A DNA stretch of 64,000 nucleotides from Ignavibacteriota bacterium (GTDB taxonomy: Bacteria; Bacteroidota; Ignavibacteria; UBA10030): assembly GCA_963701295.1 (NCBI GenBank), contig OY969585.1, forward strand, positions 2,816,001 through 2,880,000, given 5' to 3'. A program made the translations under genes and the position numbers. Below the pieces are notes generated by a model, which worked only from the letters and a program-made list of their open reading frames with translations, searched no databases and was not told where the DNA came from. The first letter of the stretch is position 1. Each line of letters opens with the position of its first letter. Shown here piece by piece: positions 3,459-20,793 of the stretch.

Positions 3459-3491
3459 GAAGGTTGCAGGTTCAAGTCCTGCCCCCGCTAC
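3459..3491 (+). tRNA. 3' fragment of an initiator-type tRNA-Met (T-arm + acceptor strand), att-like remnant
   Basis: GAAGGTTGCAGGTTCAAGTCCTGCCCCCGCTAC matches the typical tRNA-fMet 3' half. There is no intact 5' half upstream. Confidence 0.75.
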
Positions 3492-3596: not shown

Positions 3597-3671
3597 GCTT
3601 ATTCAAATTTAGTGTCGCGCTTGGCGTGATTCAGTTATTTGGACAAGCCGAGCTTGAGCGTCTGGTTATGC
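3597..3671 (-). repeat. Truncated terminal attC of a different, shorter type
   Basis: R''/L'' side present (+ strand AGCTTGAGCGTCTGGTTATGC) plus an internal imperfect hairpin at 3597-3648. L'/R' are missing. Confidence 0.6.
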
Positions 3672-3679
3672 CGCTTATT

Positions 3680-4189
3680 TTATTTGTTTACTTGACCAAA
3701 TAATTGAGCTGCGGGACATCCGAGTTCTTGTTGTTTGCAATACTTACAGGAAAAAGAACTGCGAATAAACTCATTCCCTTTAAAGGAAATCAAAACAATA
3801 GCAATTATTGCAGCTAAAATTATCCATTTAAAATTGATCAATAATGTAATTATTCCGCCAATTAAAGGAAGAACTAGTAATAGCAAATCGGGTATCATAT
3901 CCCACCACGTCGATTTTCGTTCATTAAATTTCTTGGGATCACCTTTGGAGAATACCGATGCACAAATTTTCCCTTTCCCAAATCCGCATAATTTTCCGTA
4001 GTAATAGCAATTTACACATCCCTTGCGATATTGATTTATTTCCATAAAAATGAAATACAATAAATAAAATACAGCAAATATAGTTCCCAATTGAGCAAGG
4101 ATGAATAATCCAATAGCATAAATAGATATCGATAATGCATTAGCTATTGCAATCATCCAAAACGGATAGTTCTCATATTTGGATTGCAT
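3680..4189 (-). CDS. Cassette: hypothetical 4-TM membrane protein with CxxC motifs
   Basis: 169-aa ORF with an SD (GAGGAG), hydrophobic segments, and CVNC...C and CKYC...C motifs. Confidence 0.8.
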   Translation of the reverse strand: MQSKYENYPFWMIAIANALSISIYAIGLFILAQLGTIFAVFYLLYFIFMEINQYRKGCVNCYYYGKLCGFGKGKICASVFSKGDPKKFNERKSTWWDMIPDLLLLVLPLIGGIITLLINFKWIILAAIIAIVLISFKGNEFIRSSFSCKYCKQQELGCPAAQLFGQVNK

Positions 4190-4225
4190 AGTTAATACTC
4201 CTCACAATTGATCTAAGCGTAAGCG

Positions 4226-4381
4226 GCCTAACGGATCAGCGCTAAGCGGCGGCGTTGATAATTTTCAAGTTGCTGGAAACGAAACAAGTTTATGATATCA
4301 ACTTTCAAATAAACACAAAACCTATGCTCGCCATGAATTTTACAGTGAGCTCATTCCGTCAGCTTGAGCGCCTGGTTAGGC
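4226..4381 (-). repeat. attC-like site (156 bp)
   Basis: GCCTAAC GGATCAGC GCTAAGC ... GCTTGAGC GCCTG GTTAGGC on the + strand. Confidence 0.9.
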
Positions 4382-4487
4382 GGCAGATGAATTGAAGAGA
4401 TTTATAACTTCAAAAAATACTTATACTAAATAATTCAATAAAAGTTTTACAATATATATTTTCTGTTTCATTGCGATATTTAGAAAA

Positions 4488-5387
4488 TCATTTTGTTAAG
4501 TAACGCACTATAACTACTCCTGAACCTCCGTTACCACCAGGCATACTTACATACGTTCCGGAAACTAGTCCGCCGCCGCCACCACCACCACCTGTATTTG
4601 GTGTGCCATTGCCTGCAATGGAATTAGTATTTGATCCTGCACCTCCGCCTCCAACGCCCCCAGCACCTGGCGTGTCAGTACCATAAACGCCACCACCACC
4701 ACCGCCTCCATAATAGACATTTGAACCTGAAATACTGAAAGCTAACCCCGGTCCACCATTTCCATTTCCACCAGATCCGGTTCCACCACTTCCAACTCCA
4801 CCCGCACCACCGCCGCCTCCTGCAAGATAATTCCAAGCAGTTCCCCCAAGACCACCAGCATATCCTTGACCAGGTATTCCATCACCGTTGCTATTACCTA
4901 GATTTTGTGGACTGCCGCCTCCACCTGAACCCCCACTGTCTGCCATTGAAAACCTGCTTGCCCCACCACCTCCACCGATTGCTACTACTACATCAAATAT
5001 TGAGTTTGACCCATTTAAAGCTGTAATAGTGTTATCAGTAGAACCACTTCCACCTACTCCAACGATAACAGGTATATTTCCACTTACATAATAATATTTT
5101 TTATATACTACTCCGCCACCACCTCCACCACCAGCCGTATGACATCCCCCACCACCACCTCCTCCTACAACAAGTAATTCCACTAGCCCACTGTCAATAC
5201 AAGAAAATGTTCCGCTGCTGGTAAAAGTATGTATTGTGTAACCTCCGGCTTGGGTTATAGTTCCACCTGTAGCCGAGTTTAACATTCCAAGTGTGATATA
5301 AGTTGGAGCGGTTGATTGATCTTTTTGGCAGCTTGCGATAAATAACAAGCATCCAACTATCATTGAAATTAAAAAGTGTTTTGTCAT
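4488..5387 (-). CDS. Cassette: lipoprotein with glycine-rich (polyglycine-II-type) domain
   Basis: Lipobox-like FIASC; IHTFTSSGTF...LVVGGGGGGG...GGSGVVIVRY signature. Confidence 0.8.
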   Translation of the reverse strand: MTKHFLISMIVGCLLFIASCQKDQSTAPTYITLGMLNSATGGTITQAGGYTIHTFTSSGTFSCIDSGLVELLVVGGGGGGGCHTAGGGGGGGVVYKKYYYVSGNIPVIVGVGGSGSTDNTITALNGSNSIFDVVVAIGGGGGASRFSMADSGGSGGGGSPQNLGNSNGDGIPGQGYAGGLGGTAWNYLAGGGGGAGGVGSGGTGSGGNGNGGPGLAFSISGSNVYYGGGGGGGVYGTDTPGAGGVGGGGAGSNTNSIAGNGTPNTGGGGGGGGLVSGTYVSMPGGNGGSGVVIVRYLTK

Positions 5388-5429
5388 GGATATTTCTCCT
5401 ATTAGTTATAGAATGCTAATTTTAAGGTT

Positions 5430-5650
5430 GCCTAACGGACCGGCGCTAAGCTGCGGCGTTGATAACTCTCGTAATGCAACCAACGAAACAAGTTCATGCT
5501 GAAAACCAAATTAATAAACACTCAACCAACGAGGTATTGAAAAGTTAATTATAAAAACTTAAACCCACCATTAGCCATGAATTTCGCACCCAGCTCATTC
5601 CGTCAGCTTGCTTGCCCGCCGTCTTGTTGGGCGGGAGCGCCTGGTTAGGT
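5430..5650 (-). repeat. attC-like site, long class, with 25-bp hairpin insertion in L''
   Basis: GCCTAAC...GTTAGGT; insertion at 5611-5635. Confidence 0.88.
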
Positions 5651-5660
5651 TGCAATTGTT

Positions 5661-6873
5661 TCATTTGAGCAAAACAAGTTTTTTTATCTCAGTAAATGAG
5701 CCGGCTTGCAATCGATAAAAATAAAATCCACTCGGCATATTTGACGCATTCCATTGCCGTGTGTAGGTGCCAGCAGATAATTCTTCAGAGGTAATGATTG
5801 CTATTTCTCTTCCAAGTAAATCATATATCTTTAGTAACACATATGATTTCGATGGAATAATAAATGAAATAGTCGTAGATGGATTAAAAGGATTGGGATA
5901 ATTCTGACCAAGCCTGAAATTCGTCGGTAAGTCAGTCGAGAGCTTTTCTACTGAGGTTATTTCTGACAACGGTCGTTTCCAGACGCCGATTTCAGTCCCG
6001 GCAAAGAGATTCGTGCCGGAAACGGTAAGAATATATATAACAGTCTTTGCCAAACCAGTGTTGATAGGAGTCCAGCTTGTGCCATTATTGGTCGAAAGAA
6101 AGACGCCACCGTTCAGAGTCCCGGCAAAGAGATTTGTTCCAGAACCAGTAAGAGCAACGACAGGATTAGACATCAATCCGTTACTCATTGCAATCCAATT
6201 TGTACCGTTATTAGTAGATAGAAAGACACCTAAATCAGTTCCAGCATAGAGATTTGTACCAGAGACGGCAAGTGTAGAGACAATAGGAATATTCGACCAC
6301 CTATCTGTTAGGCCTGTATTCACTGCAGTCCAGCTTGTCCCATTGTTGGTCGATAGGAAAACGCCATCTTCAGTCCCTGCAAAGAGATTAGTACCAGAAA
6401 CAATAATATAGGCTAACTTTAATCCAGTACCTCGCTGCAGACCAACTAGTACCGTTATTGGTGGAAAGAAAAACGCCGTTATAAGTCGCGGCAAATAGAT
6501 TCGTACCGGAGACGGCAAAAGAATAGACAAAAGGGGATGTCAAGTTTGAATCGATTGCTTTCCAGCTTGTGCCATTGTTGGTGGATAGAAAGGCGCCACC
6601 ACCCCAAGTCCCGGCAAAAAGATTCGTACCGGAGAATGTAAGAGCATAGACATAAGGATTTGTCAATCCTGAATCGACTGTAATCCAACTTGTGCCGTCG
6701 TTAGTGGAAAGAAAGACACCGCCAGATCCTCCTGCAAAGAGATTCGTACCACTTGCAGTAATACATTGAATAAAACCATTGTTGGATCCTGTCTGTATCC
6801 ATTGAGCCATGGAAGGATTGATGCCGGATATCATAAAAATACTTAACATTAAAGAACGAATAATGTTTTTCAT
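5661..6873 (-). CDS. Cassette: secreted beta-propeller repeat protein with T9SS C-terminal domain; frameshift near 6430
   Basis: Signal peptide; repeats of SGTNLFAGT..GVFLSTNNGTSW spread over two overlapping ORFs (6388-6873, 5661-6530); QNYPNPFNPST...KKLVLLK. Confidence 0.85.
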
Positions 6874-6913
6874 ATGTCTGTTTTCTTCTGTTTAGTTACT
6901 ACAACGCAATTGC

Positions 6914-7068
6914 ACCTAACTGACTGGCGCTAAGCTGCGGCGTTGATAATTCTCGTAATGCAACCAAAGAAACAAGTTCATGCTGATTCTTTCAAGTTTG
7001 TACTGACCTATACGTGCAATGTAAATTGCACCCAGCTGGCAACCGTCAGCTTGAGCAGTGGGTTAGGA
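6914..7068 (-). repeat. attC-like site (155 bp)
   Basis: ACCTAAC...GCTAAGC...GCTTGAGC...GTTAGGA. Confidence 0.88.
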
Positions 7069-7080
7069 TGCAATTGCCAT

Positions 7081-8860
7081 TTACTTAAGCAAAATCATTT
7101 TCTTTGTCTTAACGAAACTTCCGGCAGTGAGTCTGTAGATATACACTCCGCTTGACAACCCACCTGCGTTAAAAGACACCGAGTGAGCACCAGCATTCTG
7201 ACGTTCGTTGACCAATGTTCTTATTTCCCTTCCTAACATATCGTAAACCTCTAAATTTATAAAACTGTTTGTCGGCAACTGATAACCGATGACCGTTGTA
7301 GGATTGAAAGGGTTAGGATAATTTTGATTCAGAACAAAAACGAGTGGAACATGCGAGCTTGTTCGCGAGACAACGCTCGTTACTGATGTTATCCAGGTCA
7401 GAGCCGCTTTTGCAACATCATCTTCACCTTTTGCGACACCATCTGGCGTTAACCAAACCTTGTCATCCATTTGAAATTCCACGTGTGTAAGATAATGAGG
7501 AAGACTGTCTTCCAAGACATACCCATTCAACCATGCGTACTGGGCAAAACAAATACTGTCGATACTTGTTATCTGATCGGATGCATATCCTGAAGCAGGA
7601 GGTTCCCCGAAAAACCGTGCCTTGGGGTGATTACGCAATTGTGTCGCTATAAAATCGTTAGCACTCACTGAATTTGGCCCCATTAGAACCGCGATTGGTT
7701 TATCGAAGAATCGCGTTGAATCGACAAACATGGAGAAAGTTGAAAAATACATCATCGAGAAATGATCGAACGGATCGTTGCGGCTCGCCAAATAAATCGG
7801 CGGGGGCGCGACTTTGAATAGAAGCGAAAGCCCTTCATCAGCATTCTCTACGTACCCTCCTTGGTTTGAGCGAATATCGATGACTATACCGTCCACCTTG
7901 TAGATGCGTGTCAGAGAGTCGATTGCATTGAAGAAATGTAAATTTGAATTAAACCAAGTCCACGAATAGACGTATCCGATGTTTGTACCCTGAACAATTC
8001 CCCACCGAACATCCTTAGCAGATGTGATCGAATCAGTCATCGGGACGCCTGCGACAGGTAGTTGTTCCGTACAAAACAAGCTTAAGTCTTTACCAATAAG
8101 AAGACTGGTGGGAAGATGCAGTGTGTCTCTCGTTGAATATTTTATGATGTCGATTGTATCAAAGAGATGCCAGTTTCTCCCAGCAGATTGAAGCCATGAA
8201 TGTGCGAACGCCCCTGCGTTTCCTCCCCAATACGATGTGAACGAAATTGGCAGCTCCATCTTAAGCAATCGAGGATAGAGTTGTTTCCACGGCACACCGT
8301 CATACCCCAGGACAATATCCCCGGGAACTAGCCCCAACGGATGCGATGGAATCGATTTGTAAACCAGAACGGTACTATCCTCAAGAGGAGTGAGTCCTGC
8401 GCCAAAACTATCGTCGTTTCCCCAACCCCCAGCAAATAACATAGGTATTCCTGGTGTGCCTCTTGTGAGATTCGTAATGCCCATATCTCCTATGTGAGTA
8501 TGCGGCTCCATCAATGCAATGGACATCTGACTGAGAATGGCTGCAAATCGGCCACGACTGACCCCTTTTTCGATCTCGGGCCGGTATTTGTTCTTGAGGA
8601 CGTTCCAATCGAAATCAAGATTTTGGAAACAGGCAAACTTCTGGTCGATCATTGTCCATACCGAATCGAAAGCTTGCAATTCTTCCGTTGCTGGAGCAGT
8701 CCCCCAAATACTATTCACTCGATCATGCCAATCAGACTTAAGGATATCGAGGGCTTGTGATTCAAGAATTGTGCTGGCACAAATCACAATGAGACAGCAC
8801 AGTAGAAAATTCTTCCAAATTAAGCGATTCTTGAATCCATCAAGAAATTCTTCCAAACTG
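7081..8860 (-). CDS. Cassette: S41-family peptidase with T9SS CTD (start uncertain)
   Basis: IVIDIRSNQGG, KPIAVLMGPNSVSAND, a PDZ-like GLVPGDIVLGYDG segment and C-terminal NYPNPFNP...KMILLK. Confidence 0.8.
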
Positions 8861-9075
8861 ATATTATGGGATAAATGATTGATATTTGTCAACTGTAGTA
8901 GAGCGGACGTTTCAGCTGTGCAGTTCTTCCGGACGGATCGTCTAAGTGTTAAATGTCTAGGGCAACAATGCTTAATTACCAAATAAACTCCCAGGCGTCA
9001 AAGAAACAAGAATTTCTAGAACCAGAAGAATTGTAGATATATTATTAAGAAACTCATTTTATATATTTTCCTGCT

Positions 9076-9232
9076 GCCTAACCAACGTCGCAGAAGCTAC
9101 CGTACTGATAATTTTCAAAATATTGATAACGAAACAAGTTCATTGTACCTACTTTCAAATTAATATAAAATCTACGCTCGCCGTGAATTTTGCAGTGAGC
9201 TCATTCCGTCAGCTTGGAGCTGCTGGTTATAC
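9076..9232 (-). repeat. attC-like site, degenerate (157 bp)
   Basis: GCCTAAC...GTTATAC with substitutions in the L boxes; interior homologous to 4226-4381. Confidence 0.8.
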
Positions 9233-9241
9233 CGCTTGCAT

Positions 9242-10192
9242 TTATTTCTTGTCTTTCAAATATTTGCTATAAAATTCGGCGATCTTATTAAAAAACTCCG
9301 GATAGGTGATGAATTCCGGCCCGTTCATGCCGCCGTGTTCGGCATGAGGCACTATCCATAATTCTTTTTGTCCCTTCAATTCACCCGCTATTTTCTTCGA
9401 CATCCAGACTGGCGTGCGATTATCCTTTTCGCCGACAATTAAGAACACCGGAATCGAAACTTTCTTTGCTGCGTTTACTGGCAACAGTTCAATGGGATAA
9501 TTTTCCGGCGGTAAAAAATTTCTGTCAGGAGAAACTTGTTTCAGTATCGGTAAAAGATCAGCAAATGATGTCAGCAACGCTCGGCCGACATAGGCTGCTA
9601 TGTCGTTCCTCTTTGCGGCGATAGCGAAAGACAAATAAGCACCGGTGGAAAAGCCCATGACACCAATTCGCATTGTATCAACTTCCGGCTGTTGCTTTAA
9701 GAAATCGACAGCCGCATTATAATCGGTAATGAATTCCGCATAGCACAATCTATCCTCTTCAGTTGGCCAATCCGAGCTTTCTCCGAAACCACGCCAATCA
9801 AAGAGCAGAACATTGTAACCCCGCGTAAACAAATGATAACCATAAAAAATTAGCTGCGTCATATTTCCAGCATCACCATCGCAAATAATGATGGTCGGCC
9901 TCCTCGAATCATCCAACGTTGTATATAGCCTCGCTTTGGGTTTGAGTTCTTGAGGTACCGGCACAATCCGTCCGATGATCGAGTTAGCTATACCTGAAGT
10001 ATCCTGTGCCGGGAAAAACCAGCCCTTCAATTTAAGACTGTCGGCAGTTTGAATTACAACTTGTCTGTAAATGATTCCGTAATCTGAAGGGATTGCGCGG
10101 TACTGTCTTTCTGGTTTGAGTGCATACAACAACGAAGAGGTGAGAAGAAGCAAGGAAACCAGCGATAACAGGGAAGTTCTAAACTTAACCAT
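9242..10192 (-). CDS. Cassette: secreted alpha/beta hydrolase
   Basis: FDWRGFGES, GFSTG nucleophile elbow, GEKD acid, HAEH His; SD AAGGAG. Confidence 0.88.
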   Translation of the reverse strand: MVKFRTSLLSLVSLLLLTSSLLYALKPERQYRAIPSDYGIIYRQVVIQTADSLKLKGWFFPAQDTSGIANSIIGRIVPVPQELKPKARLYTTLDDSRRPTIIICDGDAGNMTQLIFYGYHLFTRGYNVLLFDWRGFGESSDWPTEEDRLCYAEFITDYNAAVDFLKQQPEVDTMRIGVMGFSTGAYLSFAIAAKRNDIAAYVGRALLTSFADLLPILKQVSPDRNFLPPENYPIELLPVNAAKKVSIPVFLIVGEKDNRTPVWMSKKIAGELKGQKELWIVPHAEHGGMNGPEFITYPEFFNKIAEFYSKYLKDKK

Positions 10193-10288
10193 TTTGTCAT
10201 CTCCTTTTTAACATGGATTCTCTATCTCAAAATTTTGAATCGAACATACAAACAGTAATGTTATCTAACTTTCATAAAAGTGCAAGAG

Positions 10289-10470
10289 GCATAATGGATC
10301 GGCGCTAAGCTGCAGCGCTGATAACTTTCATAATGTACTAAACGAACCAAGTTCATTCACTTCACTTTCAATTCTGCACTTGACCTCTACGCGCAATGCA
10401 AAATGCACTCGCGCTTTTACCGTCAGCTTGCTTGCCCGCCGTCTTGTTGGGCGGGAGCGCCTGGTTAGGC
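10289..10470 (-). repeat. attC-like site with mutated core (GTT to ATT) and 25-bp hairpin insertion
   Basis: GCATAAT...GTTAGGC; the insertion at 10431-10455 is identical to 5611-5635. Confidence 0.85.
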
Positions 10471-10477
10471 GGCTTTG

Positions 10478-11152
10478 CTAAAATGATGTCGTATCTTCTT
10501 TAACAGAAATAATTTTCCCGTTTTTATAAGACTTAATAGTCGTGATAGATCGCTTGTTCTCAAAGTCGTTGTAGGTATCTACTTCTCTAAGTAGAATTAA
10601 TTTGCCATTTTTGAAACAATGAGTATAGACAGCACCACCAGTACTCCCTCCTGCATCATAAGATGTAATTGTATGTTTAACAGAATCAGGGTCTGGATCT
10701 CTTAACTCGCTAAAATCATCATTAAATACATACTTGCCTGTTTTTGGATTGTACAGCCAAACATAATTTTGTCCTCCAGCACTTCCGTCGTTATACTCTA
10801 TAAGAATATCATTATAACCATCAAAATTCATGTCCTTTGTCTCAACAGCTCTCGGATTAAAAATAAAATCATCATTTTTAGGCAAATGGAGCCTTTGTAA
10901 TATTTTATTACTGCCTTCTTGTCGCACCTCTATTCGGATTACCTTTGGACCAGGATCAACATTCTGTTCCCAATCACTTACGAATACCGAAAATTTATAT
11001 TGAGGTAATTGCTTCGCCACAGTTATCGTAAAGTCATATTGGTTATCAGAGACCTTAACAAACGGTACTTGCGCAAGATATTGGGCGACTACAATTTCAG
11101 TGAAAGAAAATAGAAACAAATGCAAAGCAACCACTTTATATAATATTTTCAT
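10478..11152 (-). CDS. Cassette: secreted protein, XAC2610-related/FG-GAP-like
   Basis: Signal peptide from MKILYK; DMNFDGYNDILI...YVWLYNPKTGKY motif. Confidence 0.65.
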   Translation of the reverse strand: MKILYKVVALHLFLFSFTEIVVAQYLAQVPFVKVSDNQYDFTITVAKQLPQYKFSVFVSDWEQNVDPGPKVIRIEVRQEGSNKILQRLHLPKNDDFIFNPRAVETKDMNFDGYNDILIEYNDGSAGGQNYVWLYNPKTGKYVFNDDFSELRDPDPDSVKHTITSYDAGGSTGGAVYTHCFKNGKLILLREVDTYNDFENKRSITTIKSYKNGKIISVKEDTTSF

Positions 11153-11187
11153 CTCGTCATATCCTTTGATTAGTACTGAGCAATGCC

Positions 11188-11339
11188 AGCTAACGGTCCT
11201 AAGCTGCGGCGTTGAAAAGCTGCAAGATGCACCCAGCAAAATGAGTTCACGCTGATAATTTTTAATTTTGCACCCGACCTCTGCACGCCATGCGTAACGT
11301 ACCCGGCTGGCAACCGTCAGCTTGAGCGCCTGGTTAGGC
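11188..11339 (-). repeat. attC-like site (152 bp), short deletion between L' and R'
   Basis: AGCTAAC GGTC CTAAGC ... GCTTGAGC GCCTG GTTAGGC. Confidence 0.85.
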
Positions 11340-11349
11340 AGCGTAAGAT

Positions 11350-11694
11350 TTAACGTAACCAGACAAAGCTACCATTTATCTCTTTAGCAAGTGTAACTGC
11401 GCCGTTGCCATAGTCATGACAAAAAATGTATTGATGAGGTAAGCGCAGTGCGACATCTTTAAATTTATGGTTTTTGTCCATAAGCTCGTCAAGAACTTGT
11501 TTAGAGCGTGATATTTTAGCTTTTGCCATTTCCGGAGTTGTATTCTCAATGTTCCATTCTGAATAACTATAAACGACTAAACAATTATCCTTCTCTTTCG
11601 AGAATACAACGCCATGATAATTAAAGGCATTACCCTCAATAAATTGATCTATGGCAATTTCAATACGCTGTGGCGTTGCGTCGGTAATATCCAT
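11350..11694 (-). CDS. Cassette: hypothetical protein (114 aa)
   Basis: The ORF fills the cassette, whose ends form a perfect 15-bp inverted repeat (GTTAGGCAGCGTAAG / CTTACGCTGCCTAAC). Confidence 0.75.
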   Translation of the reverse strand: MDITDATPQRIEIAIDQFIEGNAFNYHGVVFSKEKDNCLVVYSYSEWNIENTTPEMAKAKISRSKQVLDELMDKNHKFKDVALRLPHQYIFCHDYGNGAVTLAKEINGSFVWLR

Positions 11695-11982
11695 TATTCT
11701 TCCTTACGCTGCCTAACGGATTGCGGCTAAGCTGCCGCATGACCAACTTTAATTAACCACAAAACGAAACGAGTTCATGCTGATAACAAAATTAACATGT
11801 ACTCAACCAATGAAGTACTGAAAAGTTAATAATAAAAACGTCAAACCACCATCAGCCATGTAAATTGCTCCAACGCTCATCCGGTCAGCTTGAGCCGCTG
11901 GATATTACCAAAAAGGAATCTCCCGATTATGTACATTGATAATTCTCTAGGTCACCAACATCCACAATCTAAGGAGATTCCC

Positions 11983-12984
11983 ATGTATTACTCAGGTATC
12001 GATTTGCATTCTGATAATTGTTTTATCACCACTGTTGATGACACTGGTGCTGTCATCAAGCGACAACGTGTCGAGAATAACAATGAACGTGTTCTTGATT
12101 ACTTCCACTCTCTGCCCGGTCCTCATCACGCAGTCGTTGAGTCTACCACAGGATGGTACTGGCTCAACGATCTTCTCAGCGATCACGGCATCGAGCTTGT
12201 CCTTGCTCACGCCAAATATCTCAAAGCCATCAGTTATGCTAAAGTTAAAACAGATAAAGTCGATTCGCAAACTCTTGCTCTTCTCTTACGACAGGGACTC
12301 ATTCCACGGGCTCACAAAATCAGCCGAGAACTACGCGGCCTGCGCGATACCATGCGTATTCGTCTACGGCTCGTTCAGCAACGAACTGCCAGTCTTCTGC
12401 GTCTCTACAGTATTCAGACCAAATTTAACGGCTCTGTTCCGGATCCGTATCGTTTTCAACTTGCTGTCTTGCAACATACCAGAGACACTTTTACTGCTCA
12501 GATCCTCTCGCTGGAAAAATCTCTCCATCCTGTGCTGATTCCCAACGACGATATTCAACGGCTCTTGCACATTCCAGGTATCGGCAAGCTCACCGCATTC
12601 ACGGTGTATCTTGAAATCGACGGCATTGAACGATTCGACTCCGATAAAAAGTTTGTCTCTTACTGCCGACTCGTCCCTGCTGCCGATAACTCCAATCGCT
12701 CTGTGCACCATCGCTCCAGCAAAGACGGCAATAAGTATCTCAAAATCGCCTTCTCCGATGCCGCTGTTCATGCTATTCAGTACTATCCGGAATACAAACG
12801 CTTATTCCAGAAATTAGCTCGTCGCTCCAATGAGGCGACTGCGCGAACCGTCGTTGCCAAAGAACTTGCGAAGATTGTTTACTATGTCTTAAAAAACAAA
12901 ACAATATATAAAGGTCTCAAAGGTCAGCCGATCAGCCGGCATAAATCTCAGCAGTGGCCGCGCCTCTCAAGCCCGCTTTCCTAA
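11983..12984 (+). CDS. IS110-family DEDD transposase/recombinase
   Basis: GIDLHS, VVEST, KTDKVDS, IPGIGKLTA, and a GNKYLK motif; SD AAGGAG. Confidence 0.95.
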   Translation: MYYSGIDLHSDNCFITTVDDTGAVIKRQRVENNNERVLDYFHSLPGPHHAVVESTTGWYWLNDLLSDHGIELVLAHAKYLKAISYAKVKTDKVDSQTLALLLRQGLIPRAHKISRELRGLRDTMRIRLRLVQQRTASLLRLYSIQTKFNGSVPDPYRFQLAVLQHTRDTFTAQILSLEKSLHPVLIPNDDIQRLLHIPGIGKLTAFTVYLEIDGIERFDSDKKFVSYCRLVPAADNSNRSVHHRSSKDGNKYLKIAFSDAAVHAIQYYPEYKRLFQKLARRSNEATARTVVAKELAKIVYYVLKNKTIYKGLKGQPISRHKSQQWPRLSSPLS

Positions 12985-13140
12985 CTGATCCCGACTGCGT
13001 CGGGATCGTTCGCTGGATTGGGAAGAGAGTGCGCTGTGCCGTGGTAATATCTGGAACATCTCGCTCGACGAGATACGCTTTCACCATCGTTTCTTCAATG
13101 AGTGAATGTAAATCCGTAAACTGGTTTGGACGGCATTGCT
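12971..13140 (+). ncRNA. Candidate bridge/seek RNA of the IS110 element (boundaries approximate)
   Basis: Two stem-flanked loops carry guides for the target (CCTAAC 12980-12985; CGCTGG 13011-13016) and the donor junction (GGTAATATC 13043-13051; TAAACTGG 13117-13124). Confidence 0.75.
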
Positions 13141-13294
13141 CTGGTAATCGCCTGTCTATTCGATAGAGAACGCGGCATCGGCACGGATTCGGTCGTCCTT
13201 AATGTTAAAGAACTCTGCATTCCGATTGCGCGGAACGCATCGGGAGTATATTATTTACTTGACTCTTTCCTTTTTAAACTGGTTAGGCAGCGCT

Positions 13295-13699
13295 TTATTT
13301 CTTATCGTTCTTTGAATCTAATTTTTTCATCTCGAAACCTCTAACGATGACATACGCAATGAGAGCAACCAGAAAAAATATAAGGAGCATCCACGCAATA
13401 CTCTGCAATGAATCGATAATAGATTTGTACACCTCTATAATCCATCGGTCAGAAGTAAGCTGAAGAATTCTGCCTTCTTTGTCCGATGTAATGTACTTTT
13501 CGAGATCCCATAATCTCACTCCGCCGGAAATGCCAACAACAAATATTGCAAAGAGGATGTACCGTCGCCAAGTGGGAGCCAGATCCTCGCTGACAAGTCG
13601 GCTAAGAATTTTTGTAATGGGTCGTGCGAAGAGGAATGCAACCAAAGTTGACATCGCCAATGCAATAACGAAGGTTACAATTAACAATGTGACAAACAT
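13295..13699 (-). CDS. Cassette: hypothetical 3-TM membrane protein
   Basis: 134-aa hydrophobic ORF, SD AGGAGG; cassette ends form a perfect 16-bp inverted repeat. Confidence 0.82.
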   Translation of the reverse strand: MFVTLLIVTFVIALAMSTLVAFLFARPITKILSRLVSEDLAPTWRRYILFAIFVVGISGGVRLWDLEKYITSDKEGRILQLTSDRWIIEVYKSIIDSLQSIAWMLLIFFLVALIAYVIVRGFEMKKLDSKNDKK

Positions 13700-13734
13700 G
13701 TGATACCTCCTTTTGACAAATAACTTAAAGCGCT

Positions 13735-13889
13735 GCCTAACGGACGCGGCTAAGCTGCGACGACGAAAACTATCAATCTTGTACCCAACGAAACGAGTTC
13801 AAGCAGGATCTTTCCAATTCCACAAGAACACTATTTGCCATGTTTAATGTACCGTCGCGCAATTCGTCAGCTTGAGCCGCTGGTTGCGC
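13735..13889 (-). repeat. attC-like site (155 bp), 1-nt deletion in R''
   Basis: GCCTAAC...GCTTGAGCCGCTG GTTGCGC, where the other end of the cassette predicts GTTAGCGC. Confidence 0.85.
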
Positions 13890-13895
13890 GCAAAG

Positions 13896-14375
13896 TTACC
13901 CGCATCCACAGCCACCCTGTGCTTTAACCATTTCGGTTCGAGTTTCGTTCTTAATAGTTATGATACTCTCCATCCACTCGAATTCACAATTATCGTTTGT
14001 TGGAGAACATACAGTGAGAAATATAAGCTTTACCTTGACGAAATATTTCCCGTATGAGTATAGCTTAATAATAGAATCGCCGACCTGTAATAATTTCTTT
14101 TGCGGCCGTACTTCTTCAATCAACTTGAGACTAATGTCATGACCATCGAGGTTCATCCAACCGATGGTGTCCTTAGCCGATCCGTCGCTGTGAAAAATGT
14201 CGCCAGACTTATGCGTGGCATCTAGATAGAAATTGCAGCCGCATTCGTCTCTATGCTCAGGAATAGATATGGGTGCAACAATGGATTTTTCCTGCGACAA
14301 TGAAAATTGGCTAGATATAGTGCATGCTAAACAGCATACGAATAAAAAGCAGAACCTATTTAGAATTATAATCAT
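13896..14375 (-). CDS. Cassette: hypothetical secreted Cys-containing protein
   Basis: Signal-like N-terminus; ECGC, C...C and terminal GGCGCG. Confidence 0.75.
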   Translation of the reverse strand: MIIILNRFCFLFVCCLACTISSQFSLSQEKSIVAPISIPEHRDECGCNFYLDATHKSGDIFHSDGSAKDTIGWMNLDGHDISLKLIEEVRPQKKLLQVGDSIIKLYSYGKYFVKVKLIFLTVCSPTNDNCEFEWMESIITIKNETRTEMVKAQGGCGCG

Positions 14376-14390
14376 TGATTTTACTTTGCG

Positions 14391-14578
14391 CGCTAACGGA
14401 CCGCAACTAAGCTGCGGCGCTGATAATTTTCAATATACACAAAACGAAGTGAGTTCATGCTAAAAGTTTATTATTAAACATCTAAACCTCTACGCGCCAT
14501 GCTTAACGTACCCATTTACCCGCCATGCTTTATCTTTGGGCGAGCGCTCATTCCGTCAGCTTGAGCGCCTGGTTAGGT
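14391..14578 (-). repeat. attC-like site with ~30-bp degenerate hairpin insertion
   Basis: CGCTAAC...GTTAGGT; extra TTTACCCGCCATGCTTTATCTTTGGGCGAG at 14515-14544. Confidence 0.85.
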
Positions 14579-14591
14579 GAACTTGCAACTA

Positions 14592-16796
14592 CTATTTGAT
14601 TAACAACATTTTCTTTACCACAAAAAAACCTCCAGCTTCGATGCGATAGAAATATACTCCGGAGGCAGAGGAAGATCCATTCCACTCTCTTGAATATGAT
14701 CCTGAATCTAAATCTCTATCGACAAGAGTTGCTATCTGATTGCCTAACAAATCAAAGATCCTGACGTGAACTTTACATCGAAAAGGAATAGAGAAATTGA
14801 TTCTTGTCAACGGATTAAAAGGGTTTGGGTAGTTCTGCTCCAGATGGAATCCATTAATCTTATTATTACTAGATTGTTGTACGTTCGTTGTCGAATGAAT
14901 GCTTCTAAATACGCCCTGCCTATAAGTGCCTGCAAATAGAAGTCCTGAATGATCTGGGGCCAAGGCAAAAACAGAAGTACTCGTCAAACCGTTGTTCAGA
15001 AGATTCCATGTTACACCAGCATCTGTTGACTGGAAAACTCCATCGCCAGAGTTACTATAGCTACCAACATAAATGTTCGATCTGGAGTTTAATGCGATAC
15101 AATTAATTGAAACATTTGGAAGACCAATATTTTCCCATGACAGACCATTGTTGTTAGAACGAAATAATCCATTGTCATAAGTCCCTGCATAAAGGTTTCC
15201 CACTGAATCAACTGCAAGACTGTAAATGTACGTATCTGGAATTCCTATACTAGTTGACGTCCAATTGTTGCCATTGTCAGTAGTGCGAAAAACATGTCCA
15301 CTTGGGAGTCCATTTACATTGCCAGTTCCAGCATAAATGAAGCCACTATTCGGCACTGCAATCATGCAGTTTACACTCCAATCTTCGAGACCAACATTTG
15401 CTTGTGCCCAAGTATCTCCACGGTCTGTGGATCGATAGACACCGAGATATGATCCAGCGAAGATACTTTGGTTCGGTGCTATTGCAAGAGCATTGAGTCT
15501 GATGGAATCCAAAGGCGTTTGCATCCAAGTAGCGCCAAGGTTCGTGCTTCGATATACACCATTGCTAGTACCAGTATAGACCCAATTACTCGAATCGATT
15601 GAGATCGATTGAATCCATGAACTTTTCAGACCCTCGTTAGATTCTTGCCAACTCGTGCCCCCATCGGTAGAACGGAATAGTCCATTGCCAATGTATGGCC
15701 CCGAATAGCCATAACCAGTTCCAGCAAAGATATATCCATTCCGACTAACACAGATCGAATGAATCCATGTATTGAGTAATCCGAGATTTCCTTCCGACCA
15801 GTGAGCACCAAAGTCTGTGGAAAAGCAAATGCCGCCACCTCCGGTACCTGTAAACAAACGGCCAGAGTGATCCGAATAAATCGAGTTTATGTACATGCTT
15901 GATAATCCATTGCTGGAACCCAGCCAACTGATGCCATGATTGGTCGAGCAAAAGACTCCATGACCTAAAGAGGCTGAGACCTGACCGGTGCCAGCATACA
16001 GGCGATTGGCATTGTCAGCCACTAGAGAGTGAATGTACTCGGCGGGTAAGCCAGAGTCAGCTGTGAACCAGTCATCTCCAGAATTTGTGGAGCGATACAC
16101 CTGACCAGCATATGTCCCAGCGTATACATCATTGTTTAAATCGACAGTGATGGCAGAAATCCATTCTGGTTGTTTAACGACAACCCAGGAATTACCACCA
16201 TCAGTTGACCGATGTAATCCACCAGTTCCTCCACCAGTCATACCGTGATACTCTTCCTCGGTTCCTGCGAAAATGAAGCCCTGTTGATTCTCCGCAAAAG
16301 CCCGAATGGAAAAGTTTGTCAATCCAATATTCAATTGATACCACGAACTACCCTCATTTGTTGATCGATAGATACCACCGCCAGATGTCCCAACAAAAAC
16401 AGCTCCGTTTCGAGTGATAAGAAGAACATTGGTGTATGTTGAAGTCATCCAGTTATCGATACGTTCCCAGCTTTGTGCATGATTTGTCGACTTGAAAACA
16501 CCCTCTACAGTTCCAACAAAAAGAACGGTATCAGATCCTACAGCAATAGTTGTAATTGATAATGAAGTCAATCCAGCATTTGAAGAAGACCAACTTTTTC
16601 CTTCATCGGTTGATTTGAAGATGCCACTTCCATCAGTGCCAGCGTAGAGTGTGCCATTAGAATCGGACACAATCGATGACACGTACGCCCCAAAAGGTCC
16701 ATTTGATTGCTGCCAGAAGTTTGCCTGAGCAATAGCAAATGTTGGAATAAGAAACAAAAAGCAAATGATTAAATACTTCATATGATACTTCCACAT
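14592..16796 (-). CDS. Cassette: large BNR/Asp-box beta-propeller protein with T9SS CTD (start may be 16781)
   Basis: Many SxDxGxxW repeats, a signal peptide and QNYPNPFNP...KKMLLIK; cassette ends form a perfect 16-bp inverted repeat. Confidence 0.9.
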   Translation of the reverse strand: MWKYHMKYLIICFLFLIPTFAIAQANFWQQSNGPFGAYVSSIVSDSNGTLYAGTDGSGIFKSTDEGKSWSSSNAGLTSLSITTIAVGSDTVLFVGTVEGVFKSTNHAQSWERIDNWMTSTYTNVLLITRNGAVFVGTSGGGIYRSTNEGSSWYQLNIGLTNFSIRAFAENQQGFIFAGTEEEYHGMTGGGTGGLHRSTDGGNSWVVVKQPEWISAITVDLNNDVYAGTYAGQVYRSTNSGDDWFTADSGLPAEYIHSLVADNANRLYAGTGQVSASLGHGVFCSTNHGISWLGSSNGLSSMYINSIYSDHSGRLFTGTGGGGICFSTDFGAHWSEGNLGLLNTWIHSICVSRNGYIFAGTGYGYSGPYIGNGLFRSTDGGTSWQESNEGLKSSWIQSISIDSSNWVYTGTSNGVYRSTNLGATWMQTPLDSIRLNALAIAPNQSIFAGSYLGVYRSTDRGDTWAQANVGLEDWSVNCMIAVPNSGFIYAGTGNVNGLPSGHVFRTTDNGNNWTSTSIGIPDTYIYSLAVDSVGNLYAGTYDNGLFRSNNNGLSWENIGLPNVSINCIALNSRSNIYVGSYSNSGDGVFQSTDAGVTWNLLNNGLTSTSVFALAPDHSGLLFAGTYRQGVFRSIHSTTNVQQSSNNKINGFHLEQNYPNPFNPLTRINFSIPFRCKVHVRIFDLLGNQIATLVDRDLDSGSYSREWNGSSSASGVYFYRIEAGGFFVVKKMLLIK

Positions 16797-16811
16797 TATT
16801 TATGCAAGTTC

Positions 16812-17008
16812 ACCTAACGGACCGGCGCTAAGCTGCGGCAATGATAACCCGCAAGCTGCTGAAAACGAACTAAGTTCATTCTGAAAACCAAATTAAATAT
16901 TCCTCAACCAATGAGGTACTGAAAAGTTAATTATAAAAACCTAAACCCACCACAAGCAATGCTTAACGTACCCCAGCTCATTCCGTCAGCTTGAGCGCCT
17001 GGTTAGAA
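16812..17008 (-). repeat. attC-like site, long class (197 bp), apparently intact
   Basis: ACCTAAC GGACCGGC GCTAAGC ... GCTTGAGC GCCTG GTTAGAA. Confidence 0.9.
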
Positions 17009-17063
17009 CGCACGCGGCACAATTTATAAATGATGAACAAAATGGATATTGTTTAATTGTAAG

Positions 17064-17660
17064 TCACATTTCTTTCGTAACGTTATCAACCCATGTCGCA
17101 AAATTCTCATATCCGTCATCTGCTACCCAATCATAAACGGAATACCACTTTTTTAATTGATAAGTTTGGCTCCACTCCTCACGTGGGAGTTGATTTTCCA
17201 GCGTGTATCCGTTTTTATCCACGCTGGTTTGCCAAGCCGTGTTATTCCATTCGAGAAATTCCAGACTTGTTCCATTGCCATTATAACGGATTGCTAAATA
17301 ATCGAATGGATTCGGGCCAAGTGCTTTGATCGTTTGGCTTTTATCTTTAATACTATTTATATGAACTCCGAACATACCGTTTCCTTTCGATATGCTCTTG
17401 AATATTTCATATCGAACCCAGCGACGGGCATATGTATCACTTCCAATTAGTACAACTGTAGCGGATGTGTTCACGAGCGCATCATCAATAAGGCGTTTGA
17501 TTGCTTCAGGGCCGGTTTTTCGTGCTTTTTCCCAAATTGAAGCGTCAAAAAATCCCGCATCATCTCTGGTCTCTTTAGTCAGGTCATGTTTTCGAACAAC
17601 GTTCGCGCGAAACGTTTCAACATCCTCATAGTCAAAGCTGAAAAATACTCTTTTTGCCAT
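17064..17660 (-). CDS. Cassette 1 gene B: TIR-like domain protein (MTH538/DUF1863, ThsB-like)
   Basis: KRVFFSFDYED, TSATVVLIGSDTYARRWVRYEI with the catalytic-position Glu. Confidence 0.88.
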   Translation of the reverse strand: MAKRVFFSFDYEDVETFRANVVRKHDLTKETRDDAGFFDASIWEKARKTGPEAIKRLIDDALVNTSATVVLIGSDTYARRWVRYEIFKSISKGNGMFGVHINSIKDKSQTIKALGPNPFDYLAIRYNGNGTSLEFLEWNNTAWQTSVDKNGYTLENQLPREEWSQTYQLKKWYSVYDWVADDGYENFATWVDNVTKEM

Positions 17661-17662
17661 AT

Positions 17663-18058
17663 TTAAAGTGTCCACATGATTAAGATGATTGTCCCAATCA
17701 ACACTGCATAAAAAGGGAGAATCGTTTTTGAAAATACTGTCTTGAGATATGTATGTTTATCCATGGCATTTTGGGAAAACTTCATGGAAAAATCTATACT
17801 TGATTCCTCCTTTATCCTTACTTCATCATACAACTCTCTAAACAACCTTTCCTGCCATAAGTAATAAGAATCAAGAAGCCAAAAGATGAAGATCGGAATA
17901 TATGCGATGAGGATGTACTGGTTCTTAGTTCCAGAAGAAAGCGCTGTTAGAGCCGCAACAATTGTGATACACCATCCTTTAGCAAAAAATGAATTGTTTC
18001 CAAGTCTGTTAATAACGCCCTGGATAAATTCTAAATGTTTGAGTTTCTTTTCGTTCAT
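17663..18058 (-). CDS. Cassette 1 gene A: small 3-TM protein translationally coupled to the TIR gene
   Basis: KHLEFIQGVINRLGNNSFFAKGW...FWLLDSYYLWQERLFRELY; the stop lies 2 bp before the TIR ATG. Confidence 0.85.
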   Translation of the reverse strand: MNEKKLKHLEFIQGVINRLGNNSFFAKGWCITIVAALTALSSGTKNQYILIAYIPIFIFWLLDSYYLWQERLFRELYDEVRIKEESSIDFSMKFSQNAMDKHTYLKTVFSKTILPFYAVLIGTIILIMWTL

Positions 18059-18097
18059 GGAATCACCATAGTCTAAAGATCAAAGAATTTTCGTGCG

Positions 18098-18172
18098 TTC
18101 TAACAATGATTAGACTGCATACCACAGCCTAATACGCTTTTTTGTGTGTTAGACTACATATTGCGGCCTAAC
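18098..18172 (-). other. attI-like site
   Basis: Core GTTAGAA of the first cassette, preceded on the minus strand by GTCTAAT and by two 23-bp imperfect direct repeats (18110-18132, 18149-18171; 18/23 identical) rather than by an attC. Confidence 0.65.
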
Positions 18173-18254
18173 ATGATGAACTTGGTAACTATGAAACGGA
18201 TTCTGGCAGCTCCCAACAATTCCCCACTTTCTTCGGATACTTATCCGCGCAGGT

Positions 18255-18283
18255 AATCTATCAATAGCATCTTTAAAACGCAA
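18255..18283 (-). promoter_or_regulatory. Candidate Pc cassette promoter
   Basis: Minus strand TTGCGT-N17-TAGATT with a TGn extension, pointing into the array. Confidence 0.55.
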
Positions 18284-18566: not shown

Positions 18567-18880
18567 TCCACCGTCACAGATAGGCAACGGCTTTATGTTG
18601 GAGGGATTGTCGGAGGGATGGAAAGCGGGTGAAAAGCGCGGACGGGACAGTATCGAGTAACATAGACAACAACGCCATAGTTGAACCAAAGGTGAAATAA
18701 AAGCATTAATATGTTATCGTAGATTTGTTTGCTGTTTATTGGCGGGAATGTTACACTCATTGGCGAAGAGCCAAATAATGGCGTGTTCAAATTGAAAAGA
18801 CAGATCTGCAAAAATATTTGTACCCAAATTGTAACATTTTGAAAATTCTTGTATCTAAAAGGCAAACAACAGGAGAATCT

Positions 18881-19729
18881 ATGAAACAGTTTGCCAAATT
18901 ATCAATTCTAATCGCTTTCTCAGCTTTGACAATGAATGTCTTTGGGCAAAGCAATAATTACCCTTTTGAAATAAAAATCTCTGGAAAAGGAATTCATTCA
19001 ATAATCTTCATCCCCGGTTTTGCTTGTTCGGGAAAAGTTTGGGATGAAACAAAAATACTCTACGAAACTAAGTACACTTGCTACATTTTGACTATGGCTG
19101 GTTTTGCAGAAGTTCCTCCTCAGTCTCAACCAACATTTCAGAATTGGGAGAAAGCCATTGCTGCATACATCCAACAAAACAAAATAGACAAGCCCATCAT
19201 TGTAGGGCATAGTTTAGGCGGTGGTTTAGCTATGGCATTAGCTGCTGATTATCCTGATCTCATTTCTAAAATAGTTATTGTCGATGCACTGCCTTGTTTG
19301 GCTGCATTAATGGATACTTCGTTTCAAGTAAAAGAAAACAATGATTGTAGTGCTATGGTATCACAAATCACATCAGCAACGAACGAACAGTTTTATCAAA
19401 TGCAAAAACAAAACATACCACATTTATTGGCAGATACATCAAAACATGACCTTGTGGTTAGCTGGTCGGTTCAATCAGACAGAACAACATTTGCAGAAAT
19501 GTATTGTGATTTTTCTAATACTGACTTACGAGAGAAGATTTCTGGTATTACATGCCCTGCATTAATTTTATTGGAATCATCTTTCGAGAACTTCAAACCG
19601 GCAATAAATGAACAATTCAAAAATCTGAAGACTTCCAATTTGCAATATGCCACGAAAGGTCTCCACTTTATTATGTATGACGACAAAGATTGGTATAACA
19701 CACAACTCAACAACTTTATTGGACGATAA
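18881..19729 (+). CDS. Secreted alpha/beta hydrolase
   Basis: IFIPGF, GHSLGG, GLHFIMYD; SD AGGAG. Confidence 0.9.
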   Translation: MKQFAKLSILIAFSALTMNVFGQSNNYPFEIKISGKGIHSIIFIPGFACSGKVWDETKILYETKYTCYILTMAGFAEVPPQSQPTFQNWEKAIAAYIQQNKIDKPIIVGHSLGGGLAMALAADYPDLISKIVIVDALPCLAALMDTSFQVKENNDCSAMVSQITSATNEQFYQMQKQNIPHLLADTSKHDLVVSWSVQSDRTTFAEMYCDFSNTDLREKISGITCPALILLESSFENFKPAINEQFKNLKTSNLQYATKGLHFIMYDDKDWYNTQLNNFIGR

Positions 19730-19736
19730 CAAACAA

Positions 19737-20207
19737 ATGACTTTTGAAGAAATATATAAGACTTATTGGCAGAAAGTTTTCCGTTTATGTATGGGATATG
19801 TAAACGACCACGATTGGGCGAAAGATATTGCACAGGAAACTTTTCTTACTATCTGGCAGCAACTGTCAAAATTCAGAAATGAATCATCAATAGGAACTTG
19901 GGTTTTTAGAATCGCTACAAATCATTGTTTGCGGCAGATCGAAAAGAATAAGAGAATGCCGAAAGCAAATATGCCTACAGAAATCGCAGAGGTTCCGCAG
20001 ACTGATGATAGCAATAAAATTGAATTCCTTTATAAATGTATTTCAGAGTTACCCGAAACAGATCGCATCATCATTTCACTTGAGCTTGAAGATTTAAAGC
20101 AATCCGAAGTTGCGAACATTGTAGGAATATCAGAGGCAAATGTTAGAGTAAGGATCCATCGTATCAAAGAACAATTAACGAGAAAGTTTAATAACTATGA
20201 AAAATAA
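19737..20207 (+). CDS. ECF RNA polymerase sigma factor
   Basis: AKDIAQETF..IW, TWVFRIATN, and region 4 EVANIVGISEANVRVRIHRIK. Confidence 0.92.
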   Translation: MTFEEIYKTYWQKVFRLCMGYVNDHDWAKDIAQETFLTIWQQLSKFRNESSIGTWVFRIATNHCLRQIEKNKRMPKANMPTEIAEVPQTDDSNKIEFLYKCISELPETDRIIISLELEDLKQSEVANIVGISEANVRVRIHRIKEQLTRKFNNYEK

Positions 20208-20793
20208 TATTGACTTAAAAGAATTGTGGAATAAGCAAGAAACAACAACTCCCGACGTAAAGGAACTCTTCGATAAAATAAAGAGGCTCAAAAGGAACAA
20301 CTTAAATGCGTTGATCGCGACAAATGTCGCGCTGCTTTTGACTTGTGCATTCATTGGATTTGTGTGGTATTATTTTCAGCCGGAAATGATAACTACCAAG
20401 ATTGGAATTGTATTGGCAATCATGGCGATGGTTTTATATCTATTCGCATACAATAGAATGATTCCATTATTAGTTCATGTTGGCTACGACATGAACAACA
20501 ATCAGTGCTTACAACAGCTTTTAAAATTAAAAGAGAAGCAATTTTTCCTTCAAACTACGATACTGAATATTTATTGTATCCTGCTTTCTGGAAGTCTTTT
20601 TCTCTACTTGATTGAGTATGCTCTTCGTATGGAGTTGATTTGGGCTATTGTTTCTTATGCCGTGACATTTCTTTTGATCGTGGTTGTTTGGTTCGACTTT
20701 AGACTAAGGAAAATAAAAAAACAGCAAGCAAAAATAAATGGATTAATCGATAAGCTTGAAGTATTAGATAGACAATTGAAAACGATCGAATAA
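20197..20793 (+). CDS. 4-TM membrane protein, probable anti-sigma factor
   Basis: Overlaps the ECF stop; DLKELW N-terminus followed by TM helices. Confidence 0.75.
   Translation: MKNNIDLKELWNKQETTTPDVKELFDKIKRLKRNNLNALIATNVALLLTCAFIGFVWYYFQPEMITTKIGIVLAIMAMVLYLFAYNRMIPLLVHVGYDMNNNQCLQQLLKLKEKQFFLQTTILNIYCILLSGSLFLYLIEYALRMELIWAIVSYAVTFLLIVVVWFDFRLRKIKKQQAKINGLIDKLEVLDRQLKTIE

Follow-up and report, generated by a model that had tools for sequence, protein, structure and literature searches.

An integrase-less, attI-headed cassette array in an Ignavibacteriota genome, a likely satellite platform of a distributed sedentary integron

How does an array of integron cassettes come to be headed by an attachment site when no integrase gene stands beside it? 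The question is raised by positions 3597 to 18283 of a 64,000-nucleotide stretch of an Ignavibacteriota chromosome (the window, G000:C1:2816001-2880000; the source genome G000 is a single contig of 3.64 Mb, 99.3% complete), where eleven cassettes with long attC recombination sites follow an attI site and a motif resembling the cassette promoter (Pc). Comparison with the rest of the genome and with its congeners leads us to consider it likely that this intI-less, attI/Pc-headed array is loaded and shuffled in trans by the single IntI of G000, as a satellite platform of a distributed sedentary integron. Printed work has already noted the presence of integrons in Ignavibacteriae (10.1101/2022.02.28.482270), and type IX secretion system (T9SS) sorting domains and a PorV-like gene fit the Fibrobacteres-Chlorobi-Bacteroidetes (FCB) group.

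The array head without intI

Three features define the head of the array:

18097..18172, minus strand: attI, two inverted pairs of 10-bp boxes (18163-18172, 18148-18157, 18124-18133 and 18109-18118)
18255..18283, minus strand: Pc-like motif TTGCGT-17 nt-TAGATT with an extended -10 TG, facing attI, placed where homology to the intI-linked head ends
18818..20793, plus strand: hydrolase-ECF sigma-membrane protein operon upstream of the head, the orthology anchor, 94.7% identical to G009:C7:71084-73510

The attI boxes are followed by a 4-nt spacer and then by the crossover core G/TTAGAAC at 18104, the right half of which matches the 3' end of cassette 1 itself over 13 bp. The site is 91.8% identical over 85 bp to that on the intI side elsewhere in the genome (G000:C1:3566438-3566522). 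Homology to the intI-linked head extends for ~180 bp and ends at the intI ribosome-binding site, intI being absent from its start codon on, and no IntI match was found within 3 kb upstream of the window head. A tyrosine recombinase at 22109-23164 was considered as the array integrase and rejected, since it scored 87 bits against a cut-off of 265.

The motif TTGCGT-17-TAGATT is predicted from its sequence to be Pc; it lies upstream of 17 of 22 attI heads versus 1.4% of random 330-mers, having itself been defined from these heads. A sigma-70 scan of the head returned two sites versus 2.5 expected, with the Pc-like motif not among the sites listed. With two attC sites or more and no intI nearby, the window array is formally a CALIN, that is, attC sites clustered without an integron integrase (PMC4889954), and not a complete integron, despite the attI at its head.

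Heads and arrays across the genome and its congeners

In G000, one of 21 tyrosine-recombinase matches exceeded the integron-integrase cut-off, namely the intI at G000:C1:3566706-3567665 (453 bits, catalytic motifs present), ~730 kb from the window array; the sole other close trace found by tblastn was a 45-residue 3' fragment at 581.7 kb. No LexA above cut-off was found in this genome. The attI pattern matched at seven places, six of them without intI, and reversed-pattern controls gave none. Short intI remnants persist at other heads: a stub at 2.46 Mb and a 26-residue fragment at 1.80 Mb in G000, and 74 codons in the congener contig G006:C8.

Scanning the G000 strands with position weights turned up 164 attC-like entries, whole or half, of which 107 had all four boxes called; as a half-site control, a strand shuffled in 1-kb pieces yielded nothing over scores of 18 (L) and 16 (R). 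These entries make up 11 clusters of at least two sites, over 240 kb, and five singles. The attC family is common to many arrays of the genome and is not peculiar to the window array, as had been claimed when it was described as the array's own. With the origin at ~976.5 kb (GC skew, dnaA), the leading-strand template carries the bottom strands in 136 of the 164 entries and in 10 of 11 clusters, the window array included. The exception, G000:C1:225025-261297, is the lone large array with its bottom strands on the lagging-strand template; it has 25 sites and is among the most intact.

Near the head, the largest satellite arrays (25-30 sites) are preserved as well as the array linked to intI. 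Different intI-less arrays have 100% identical cassettes in common (290, 314 and 442 bp), set between different neighbours, and one 618-bp piece, not bounded by cores, is common at 98% to the intI-linked array and a satellite. A tRNA gene lies within 5 kb of five of the 11 clusters (simulated mean 1.7, p 0.015); together with a 33-bp tRNA-Met scar just past the window array, this proximity suggests islands as one vehicle for the modules.

We compared G000 with 15 congeners; the cassette variation reported here is that between species. The attI pattern was found in 10 of the 15, in more than one copy in seven (four copies in G009; two each in G001, G004, G006, G011, G013 and G014). Taken together, 26 heads from 11 genomes have a full-length intI in cis at six and not at 20; among the latter, two stand so close to the end of a contig that no judgement can be made, and in two others tblastn picks up remaining intI fragments. 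The chromosomal intI occupies a conserved locus across related species, its flanks matching those of G000 in G001, G009 and G010, and not at the loci examined in G007, G011 and G012.

The history of the window head can be read from two others. On contig G009:C7, attI stands at the same place beside the orthologous operon, and this head, the window head and that at 3.17 Mb in G000 have in common a 24-bp and an 18-bp deletion as well as an identical junction to non-intI sequence at the intI start. The loss of intI thus predates both the copying within G000 and the split from G009. The first cassettes of the three heads differ, and the window and G009:C7 arrays have no cassette in common: outside attC, their only matches are those between paralogous BNR/T9SS tails (up to 212 bp, 66-79%). 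Cassette content, whose invariance among relatives would have spoken against an integron, therefore differs between species at orthologous intI-less heads.

A second intI-less attI follows an HMGL-like gene by nadA/B/C-type genes in G001, G004, G008 and G009, with no IntI match there and with four different first cassettes; three of these arrays are readable for only 1.7-2.4 kb before the contig ends. A junction filler of ~400 bp at the nad locus is common to G000, G004 and G009. Where measurable, the first cassettes at intI-less heads have perfectly matched ends of 13-15 bp in 10 of 14 cases, which points to exact insertion at the attI crossover. No orthologous array context was found in the congeners for the left flank of the window array (a hybrid sensor-regulator), and of the sequencing runs listed, six of DNA with small shares and none of RNA, the four DNA runs that we checked showed the repeats of relatives only and no usable same-strain junction.

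The first-pass annotation had proposed a sedentary chromosomal integron. The conserved intI locus, the leading-strand orientation and the varying cassettes bear out the sedentary and chromosomal part; the window array is not a complete integron, as intI is not in cis.

Cassettes, attC sites and matched ends

From head to tail, the array reads as follows:

17663..18058, minus strand: cassette 1, gene 1, PDC-M50A-like small membrane protein, candidate member of an anti-phage pair (PADLOC, E 2e-50)
17064..17675, minus strand: cassette 1, gene 2, ThsB-type TIR protein / PDC-M50B (PF08937, E 3.7e-19; PADLOC, E 1.6e-57)
16812..17008, minus strand: attC of cassette 1, 197 bp, long class
14592..16796, minus strand: cassette 2 (2247 bp), BNR/propeller protein with a T9SS sorting domain; 16-bp own-end match
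14391..14578, minus strand: attC of cassette 2, 188 bp; poor fold in array context
13896..14375, minus strand: cassette 3, 159-aa open reading frame (ORF), no family match
13735..13889, minus strand: attC of cassette 3, 155 bp; one base lost in R''
13295..13699, minus strand: cassette 4, hydrophobic 134-aa ORF, no family match
11900..13281, plus strand: IS110/IS1111-type insertion sequence (IS) in the R''-L'' spacer of the cassette 4 attC (PF01548, PF02371, NF033542)
11711..11899, minus strand: attC of cassette 4, L''-R' part; R'' at 13282-13288 past the IS, about 197 bp in total
11350..11694, minus strand: cassette 5, 114-aa ORF, no family match; 15-bp own-end match
11188..11339, minus strand: attC of cassette 5, 152 bp; L'-R' spacer shortened
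10478..11239, minus strand: cassette 6, XAC2610-related protein (NF047539, E 1.9e-20)
10289..10470, minus strand: attC of cassette 6, 157 bp plus a 25-nt hairpin in L'' at 10431-10455 (182 bp)
9242..10192, minus strand: cassette 7, alpha/beta hydrolase
9076..9232, minus strand: attC of cassette 7, 157 bp; L' decayed
7081..8982, minus strand: cassette 8, S41 peptidase with a T9SS sorting domain; ends mismatched, likely a fusion of two decayed cassettes
6914..7068, minus strand: attC of cassette 8, 155 bp
5661..6873, minus strand: cassette 9, BNR-repeat T9SS protein, split into ORFs 6388-6873 and 5661-6530
5430..5650, minus strand: attC of cassette 9, 196 bp plus a 25-nt hairpin in L'' at 5611-5635 (221 bp)
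4488..5387, minus strand: cassette 10, glycine-rich protein (PF21722, E 1e-20)
4226..4381, minus strand: attC of cassette 10, 156 bp; R and L boxes both paired, two bulged bases
3680..4189, minus strand: cassette 11, hydrophobic 169-aa ORF, no family match
3597..3671, minus strand: terminal half attC, R'' and L'' only
3459..3491, plus strand: 33-bp copy of the tRNA-Met 3' end, an att-like scar just past the array tail (intact gene at G000:C1:1811584-1811657)

The ten homologous attC-like sites proposed earlier, between 4226 and 17008, are all present with R/L box anatomy, beside a half copy at about 3597-3671. Their top strand is the minus strand, each site coming after a minus-strand gene, and the layout is R'' RYYYAAC, a 5-nt spacer, L'' GCTCAAGC, a long interior, L' GCTTAGC, a spacer of 7-9 nt and R' GTTRRRY, so that on this strand the L'' and L' boxes do differ by the one base noted before. 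R''/R' cores flank L''/L' with the 5-nt R''-L'' spacer throughout, with damage in the sites at 9076, 11188 and 13735; in the damaged 11188 site the L'-R' spacer falls below 7-9 nt. The interior motif said to be shared does recur in all ten sites, with variants. Within the interiors, a palindrome of the GAAC-N3-GTTC type is conserved ~55 nt ahead of each next cassette (for example at 16863-16879). No Rfam match was found over 3000-24000.

As to length, sites of the reported 152-221 bp do exist, with the reservation that those of 182 and 221 bp contain the 25-nt hairpin in L'' and that one site is split by the IS; native lengths in the window are 152-197 bp. IntegronFinder has a default attC size limit of 200 bp. 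Genome-wide, 70 of the 107 whole sites measure 149-160 bp, 33 measure 187-199 bp and four are outliers, and these two classes justify the description of the family as unusually long against the published 57-141 bp.

The L'' arm motif occurs order-wide at low counts and is abundant in the genera g1 and g58. Four g58 genomes, from another family of the order, have it 53-238 times, in sites of 113-152 bp with a different interior. The highest count belongs to G103, whose contigs C1 and C5 carry two IntI genes and, all on one strand, 238 near-identical matches to the attC arm; this is a very large conventional array in the order of G000, in contrast to the distributed layout described here.

Do these sites fold as attC sites should? 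On the bottom strand, the best-kept ones fold into the expected hairpin, in which the R boxes and the L boxes pair and two bases bulge out, one of them a G in L''; the absence of such a hairpin would have told against attC. The predicted pairing of the L boxes exceeds 0.8 in six of the ten window sites (one with the IS omitted) and that of the R boxes is ~0.9 or above in three; folding is poor in the sites at 9076, 10289 and 14391. Across the genome, L pairing exceeds 0.5 in 64 of 95 sites. The whole-site folding energy was unremarkable for 4226-4381 (z -0.72) and significant for another tested site (z -2.91).

The ends of the cassettes are complementary well beyond the core. Perfect own-end matches of 13, 16, 16 (across the IS) and 15 bp were found for cassettes 1, 2, 4 and 5, exactly the 15-16 bp for three cassettes and 13 bp for another that had been reported; the match of cassette 3 has a one-base gap, and cassettes 6-11 keep only 0-7 perfect bp. 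Over the genome, 51 of 115 parsed cassettes have a perfect match of 13-16 bp and random pairing of ends reaches at least 13 bp in 0.2%, so the match is not due to chance. No G000 cassette exceeds 16 bp (0 of 115), and one G009 cassette reaches 18.

Long complementarity as a trait unique to this family was rejected in part, since other lineages reach 11-14 bp: at least 11 bp in 11 of 36 generically parsed cassettes and at least 13 bp in one of 36. Four further rows, from locus L052, were set aside, as that locus bears the attC family of the window array. The loci retrieved by IntI similarity mostly had distant IntI (52-63%) and served as a control set only. When nine window cassettes were folded as circles and in the array, five gained 9-12 kcal/mol in the circle, one gained 6.7, one was about equal and two were worse. 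The own-end repeats pair solely in the excised circle, so that, by these models, integration may be favoured over excision.

Several further observations concern the cargo and the inserts. The first cassette (17064-18058), a PDC-M50A/B pair and candidate anti-phage system, sits at the position predicted to be best expressed. Cassettes 2, 8 and 9, like many arrays in the genus, carry T9SS-sorted proteins in 1.3-2.2 kb cassettes that are large and lineage-specific. At the other extreme stand small gene-less cassettes of 199-314 bp, repeated in the arrays that G000 has at 225-261 kb, 1.80 Mb, 2.46-2.50 Mb and 3.13-3.17 Mb; their own ends match over only 8 bp, and some have 100% identical copies in different arrays. 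Two genes are each broken in two, the hybrid sensor kinase/AraC regulator (86-2092 and 2250-3236) and the BNR gene (5661-6873), by either decay or long-read error. The tRNA-Met scar and the phage-type tyrosine recombinase, 4 kb past the head, with a similar recombinase near the G009 ortholog, are possibly the ends of an old island.

The 25-nt hairpin recurs identically in L'' of five attC sites (the two in the window and those at G000 1156323, 1157250 and 3159832), inserted at the extrahelical-base position, where a 4-nt CAAG repeat marks the junction; variants occur in attC interiors and outside arrays, and the element resembles a REP-like mini-element. The IS has its transposase ORF called at 11890-12984, a long non-coding region downstream and a 9-bp perfect subterminal inverted repeat, seen by eye. 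All nine identical copies in the genome occupy one attC position, and the two diverged copies (82%) lie in attC as well. Its non-coding region has short matches to both IS ends, as in a guide RNA.

Loading in trans, rival readings and known systems

A route consistent with these findings would begin with a complete integron head that is copied or acquired and whose intI then decays while Pc-attI remains, the stubs at two other heads representing this stage. The intI-less module would itself be copied next, as the two deletions and the junction that the window and 3.17 Mb heads share with G009:C7 suggest. IntI from 3.57 Mb would insert cassette circles at the satellite attI by recombination of the attC bottom strand with attI; the newest cassette, here the PDC-M50/TIR candidate defence pair, would enter at 18104 under Pc, and distal cassettes would decay. 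The 13-16-bp own-end complementarity would lengthen the R-box duplex only in the excised circle and so bias the reaction towards integration, and several heads would provide several highly expressed first positions at the cost of one integrase. Only the cognate integrase recognises a given attI (PMC2095811), which would explain why the intI-less copies stay similar to the linked one.

A number of results weigh against loading in trans. The distal half of the window array is decayed, and both R and L boxes are predicted to be paired at P>0.5 in only 39 of 95 whole attC sites in array context. The window attI boxes differ by three substitutions from the other G000 copies, and the attI search pattern by itself imposes part of the box conservation seen among orphan heads. 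No near-identical copy of any window cassette was found elsewhere in G000, and no parsed cassette is common to the intI-linked array and any satellite. The G000 copy of the nad locus has lost its attI. G004 and G013 have intI-less heads and no IntI match at E 1e-30, in fragmented assemblies that are 97% and 99% complete, and G006, G008 and G014 have only more distant IntI (60-62%).

Two further observations point to another process. The window head is 91.9% identical to its G000 paralog over 221 bp and 75% identical to its G009 ortholog over 385 bp, so homologous recombination may exchange heads and could in this way swap arrays without IntI. The 442-bp cassette common to two arrays has an IS-split attC in both copies; IntI should not move it, and homologous exchange therefore also operates. 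With the IntI gaps in the five congeners just named and the unshared cassettes, these observations make homologous exchange of heads or blocks a real rival.

In its strongest form, that rival makes the array a frozen relic: a complete integron arrived, by duplication or on an island from a congener, lost its intI and decays, the species differences reflecting wholesale replacement of head plus array from donors still equipped with intI, whether through homologous recombination or through horizontal transfer. The intI stubs at the G000 and G006:C8 heads, the decay of cassettes 6-11, the paralog-like window head, the clusters near tRNA genes with the tRNA-Met scar, and the IS-bearing cassette copied between arrays would all follow from such a history. 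It is harder to reconcile with the three heads that have a common intI-less junction and deletions and carry different, fresh first cassettes, and a block-replacement donor for the orthologous locus would itself be intI-less. In addition, four species keep the attI of the nad locus in the absence of intI, and near their heads the largest satellites are as well preserved as the intI-linked array. We therefore regard a frozen relic as unlikely, with a chance that still has to be reckoned with.

Far less probable is an ordinary CALIN without a true attI, formed by secondary-site (attG) insertion or by IS-mediated splitting of the main array. CALINs are known to originate by intI loss, rearrangement and secondary-site insertion (PMC4889954; 10.1101/2022.09.11.507474), there is an IS within this array, and other parts of G000 have lone attC sites and clusters without a head; a head made of a full attI and ~180 bp homologous to the intI-proximal region largely refutes this origin for the window array, and the IS lies inside a mid-array attC, not at the array end. 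That the repeats are REP-like or RNA elements between genes and not recombination sites, as the conserved interior without an assigned role and the z-score of only -0.72 for 4226-4381 might suggest, is barely credible given their canonical R/L anatomy with bulged bases, the cassette-specific matched ends, the same family beside intact intI and attI, the attC-targeting IS and the lack of an Rfam match.

Loading in trans thus remains our preferred account of the window array. Its extension to the genus is put forward more tentatively, as a proposition that we would not quite back at even chances: the intI-less Pc-attI module would proliferate and outlast speciation, one cognate IntI would load all copies and give many expressed first positions, and the 13-16-bp own-end repeats, paired only in the excised circle, would serve as a ratchet for integration and preserve a record of the way in which cassette ends arise.

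What this case contributes is the existence of orthologous intI-less heads with a common deletion history yet different cassettes. Our literature search, with subscription-only papers and the supplementary tables of the IntegronFinder papers outside its scope, found no account of multiple cognate attI satellites served by one integrase, nor of these long attC sites. CALINs, which roughly equal complete integrons in number, are usually taken as degraded leftovers; orthologous intI-less heads with different fresh cassettes offer historical evidence that some are active landing pads, and one integrase with seven natural attI variants in one genome makes the question testable. An attC family above the published size range means that cassette counts in this lineage may be underestimates, and own-end repeats so sharply bounded (peak 13-16 bp) place a measurable constraint on models of cassette genesis.

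Among known systems, the IS resembles the IS1111-attC group (ISKpn4, ISPst6; PMC11187229) in its DEDD transposase, downstream non-coding region and site-specific insertion into attC, and differs in that the group's subterminal repeats are 11-13 bp versus 9 bp by eye here and that the target of the window element is the long attC family. The array itself is like the CALINs of Cury et al. 2016 (PMC4889954) in having at least two attC, no intI nearby, an IntI elsewhere in the replicon and an IS in the array; it differs from them in its full cognate attI and Pc-like motif and in that it appears to gain cassettes. In the available text of that paper, CALINs are seen as cassette donors to the integron attI, a search for attI was impossible in most integrons, and 6.6% of CALINs have more than 10 sites, so an array of ten or more sites is rare. 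Action in trans on CALINs is mentioned for excision (PMC9668308; 10.1101/2025.06.18.660453), and trans action also for class 2 integrons (PMC11213556).

The sedentary integrons of Vibrio and Xanthomonas (Loot et al. 2017, PMC5371416; 10.1101/2025.06.18.660453) likewise have homogeneous attC sites with long terminal loops, bottom strands on the leading-strand template, an orientation reported for most sedentary integrons (PMC5371416), and a top strand more stable than the bottom (+2.0 kcal/mol in G000). In Xanthomonas there are also CALINs at conserved loci away from intI, for which the available text of 10.1101/2025.06.18.660453 reports no attI. The differences are that those integrons form one array with attC of 57-141 bp (PMC5371416) and G000 has 11 clusters, seven attI heads and attC of 149-199 bp, and that the G000 cargo takes in 2-kb T9SS-secreted proteins.

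A further parallel is the class 2 integron with an inactive intI2 (PMC11213556, PMC8876359), where an attI-Pc platform has a dead integrase of its own and is perhaps served in trans. In that case intI2 remains in place but contains a stop codon, the array hardly varies and the enzyme in trans is a non-cognate one; in contrast, platforms of the window type have had intI deleted, are many, chromosomal and cognate, and have cassettes that turn over.

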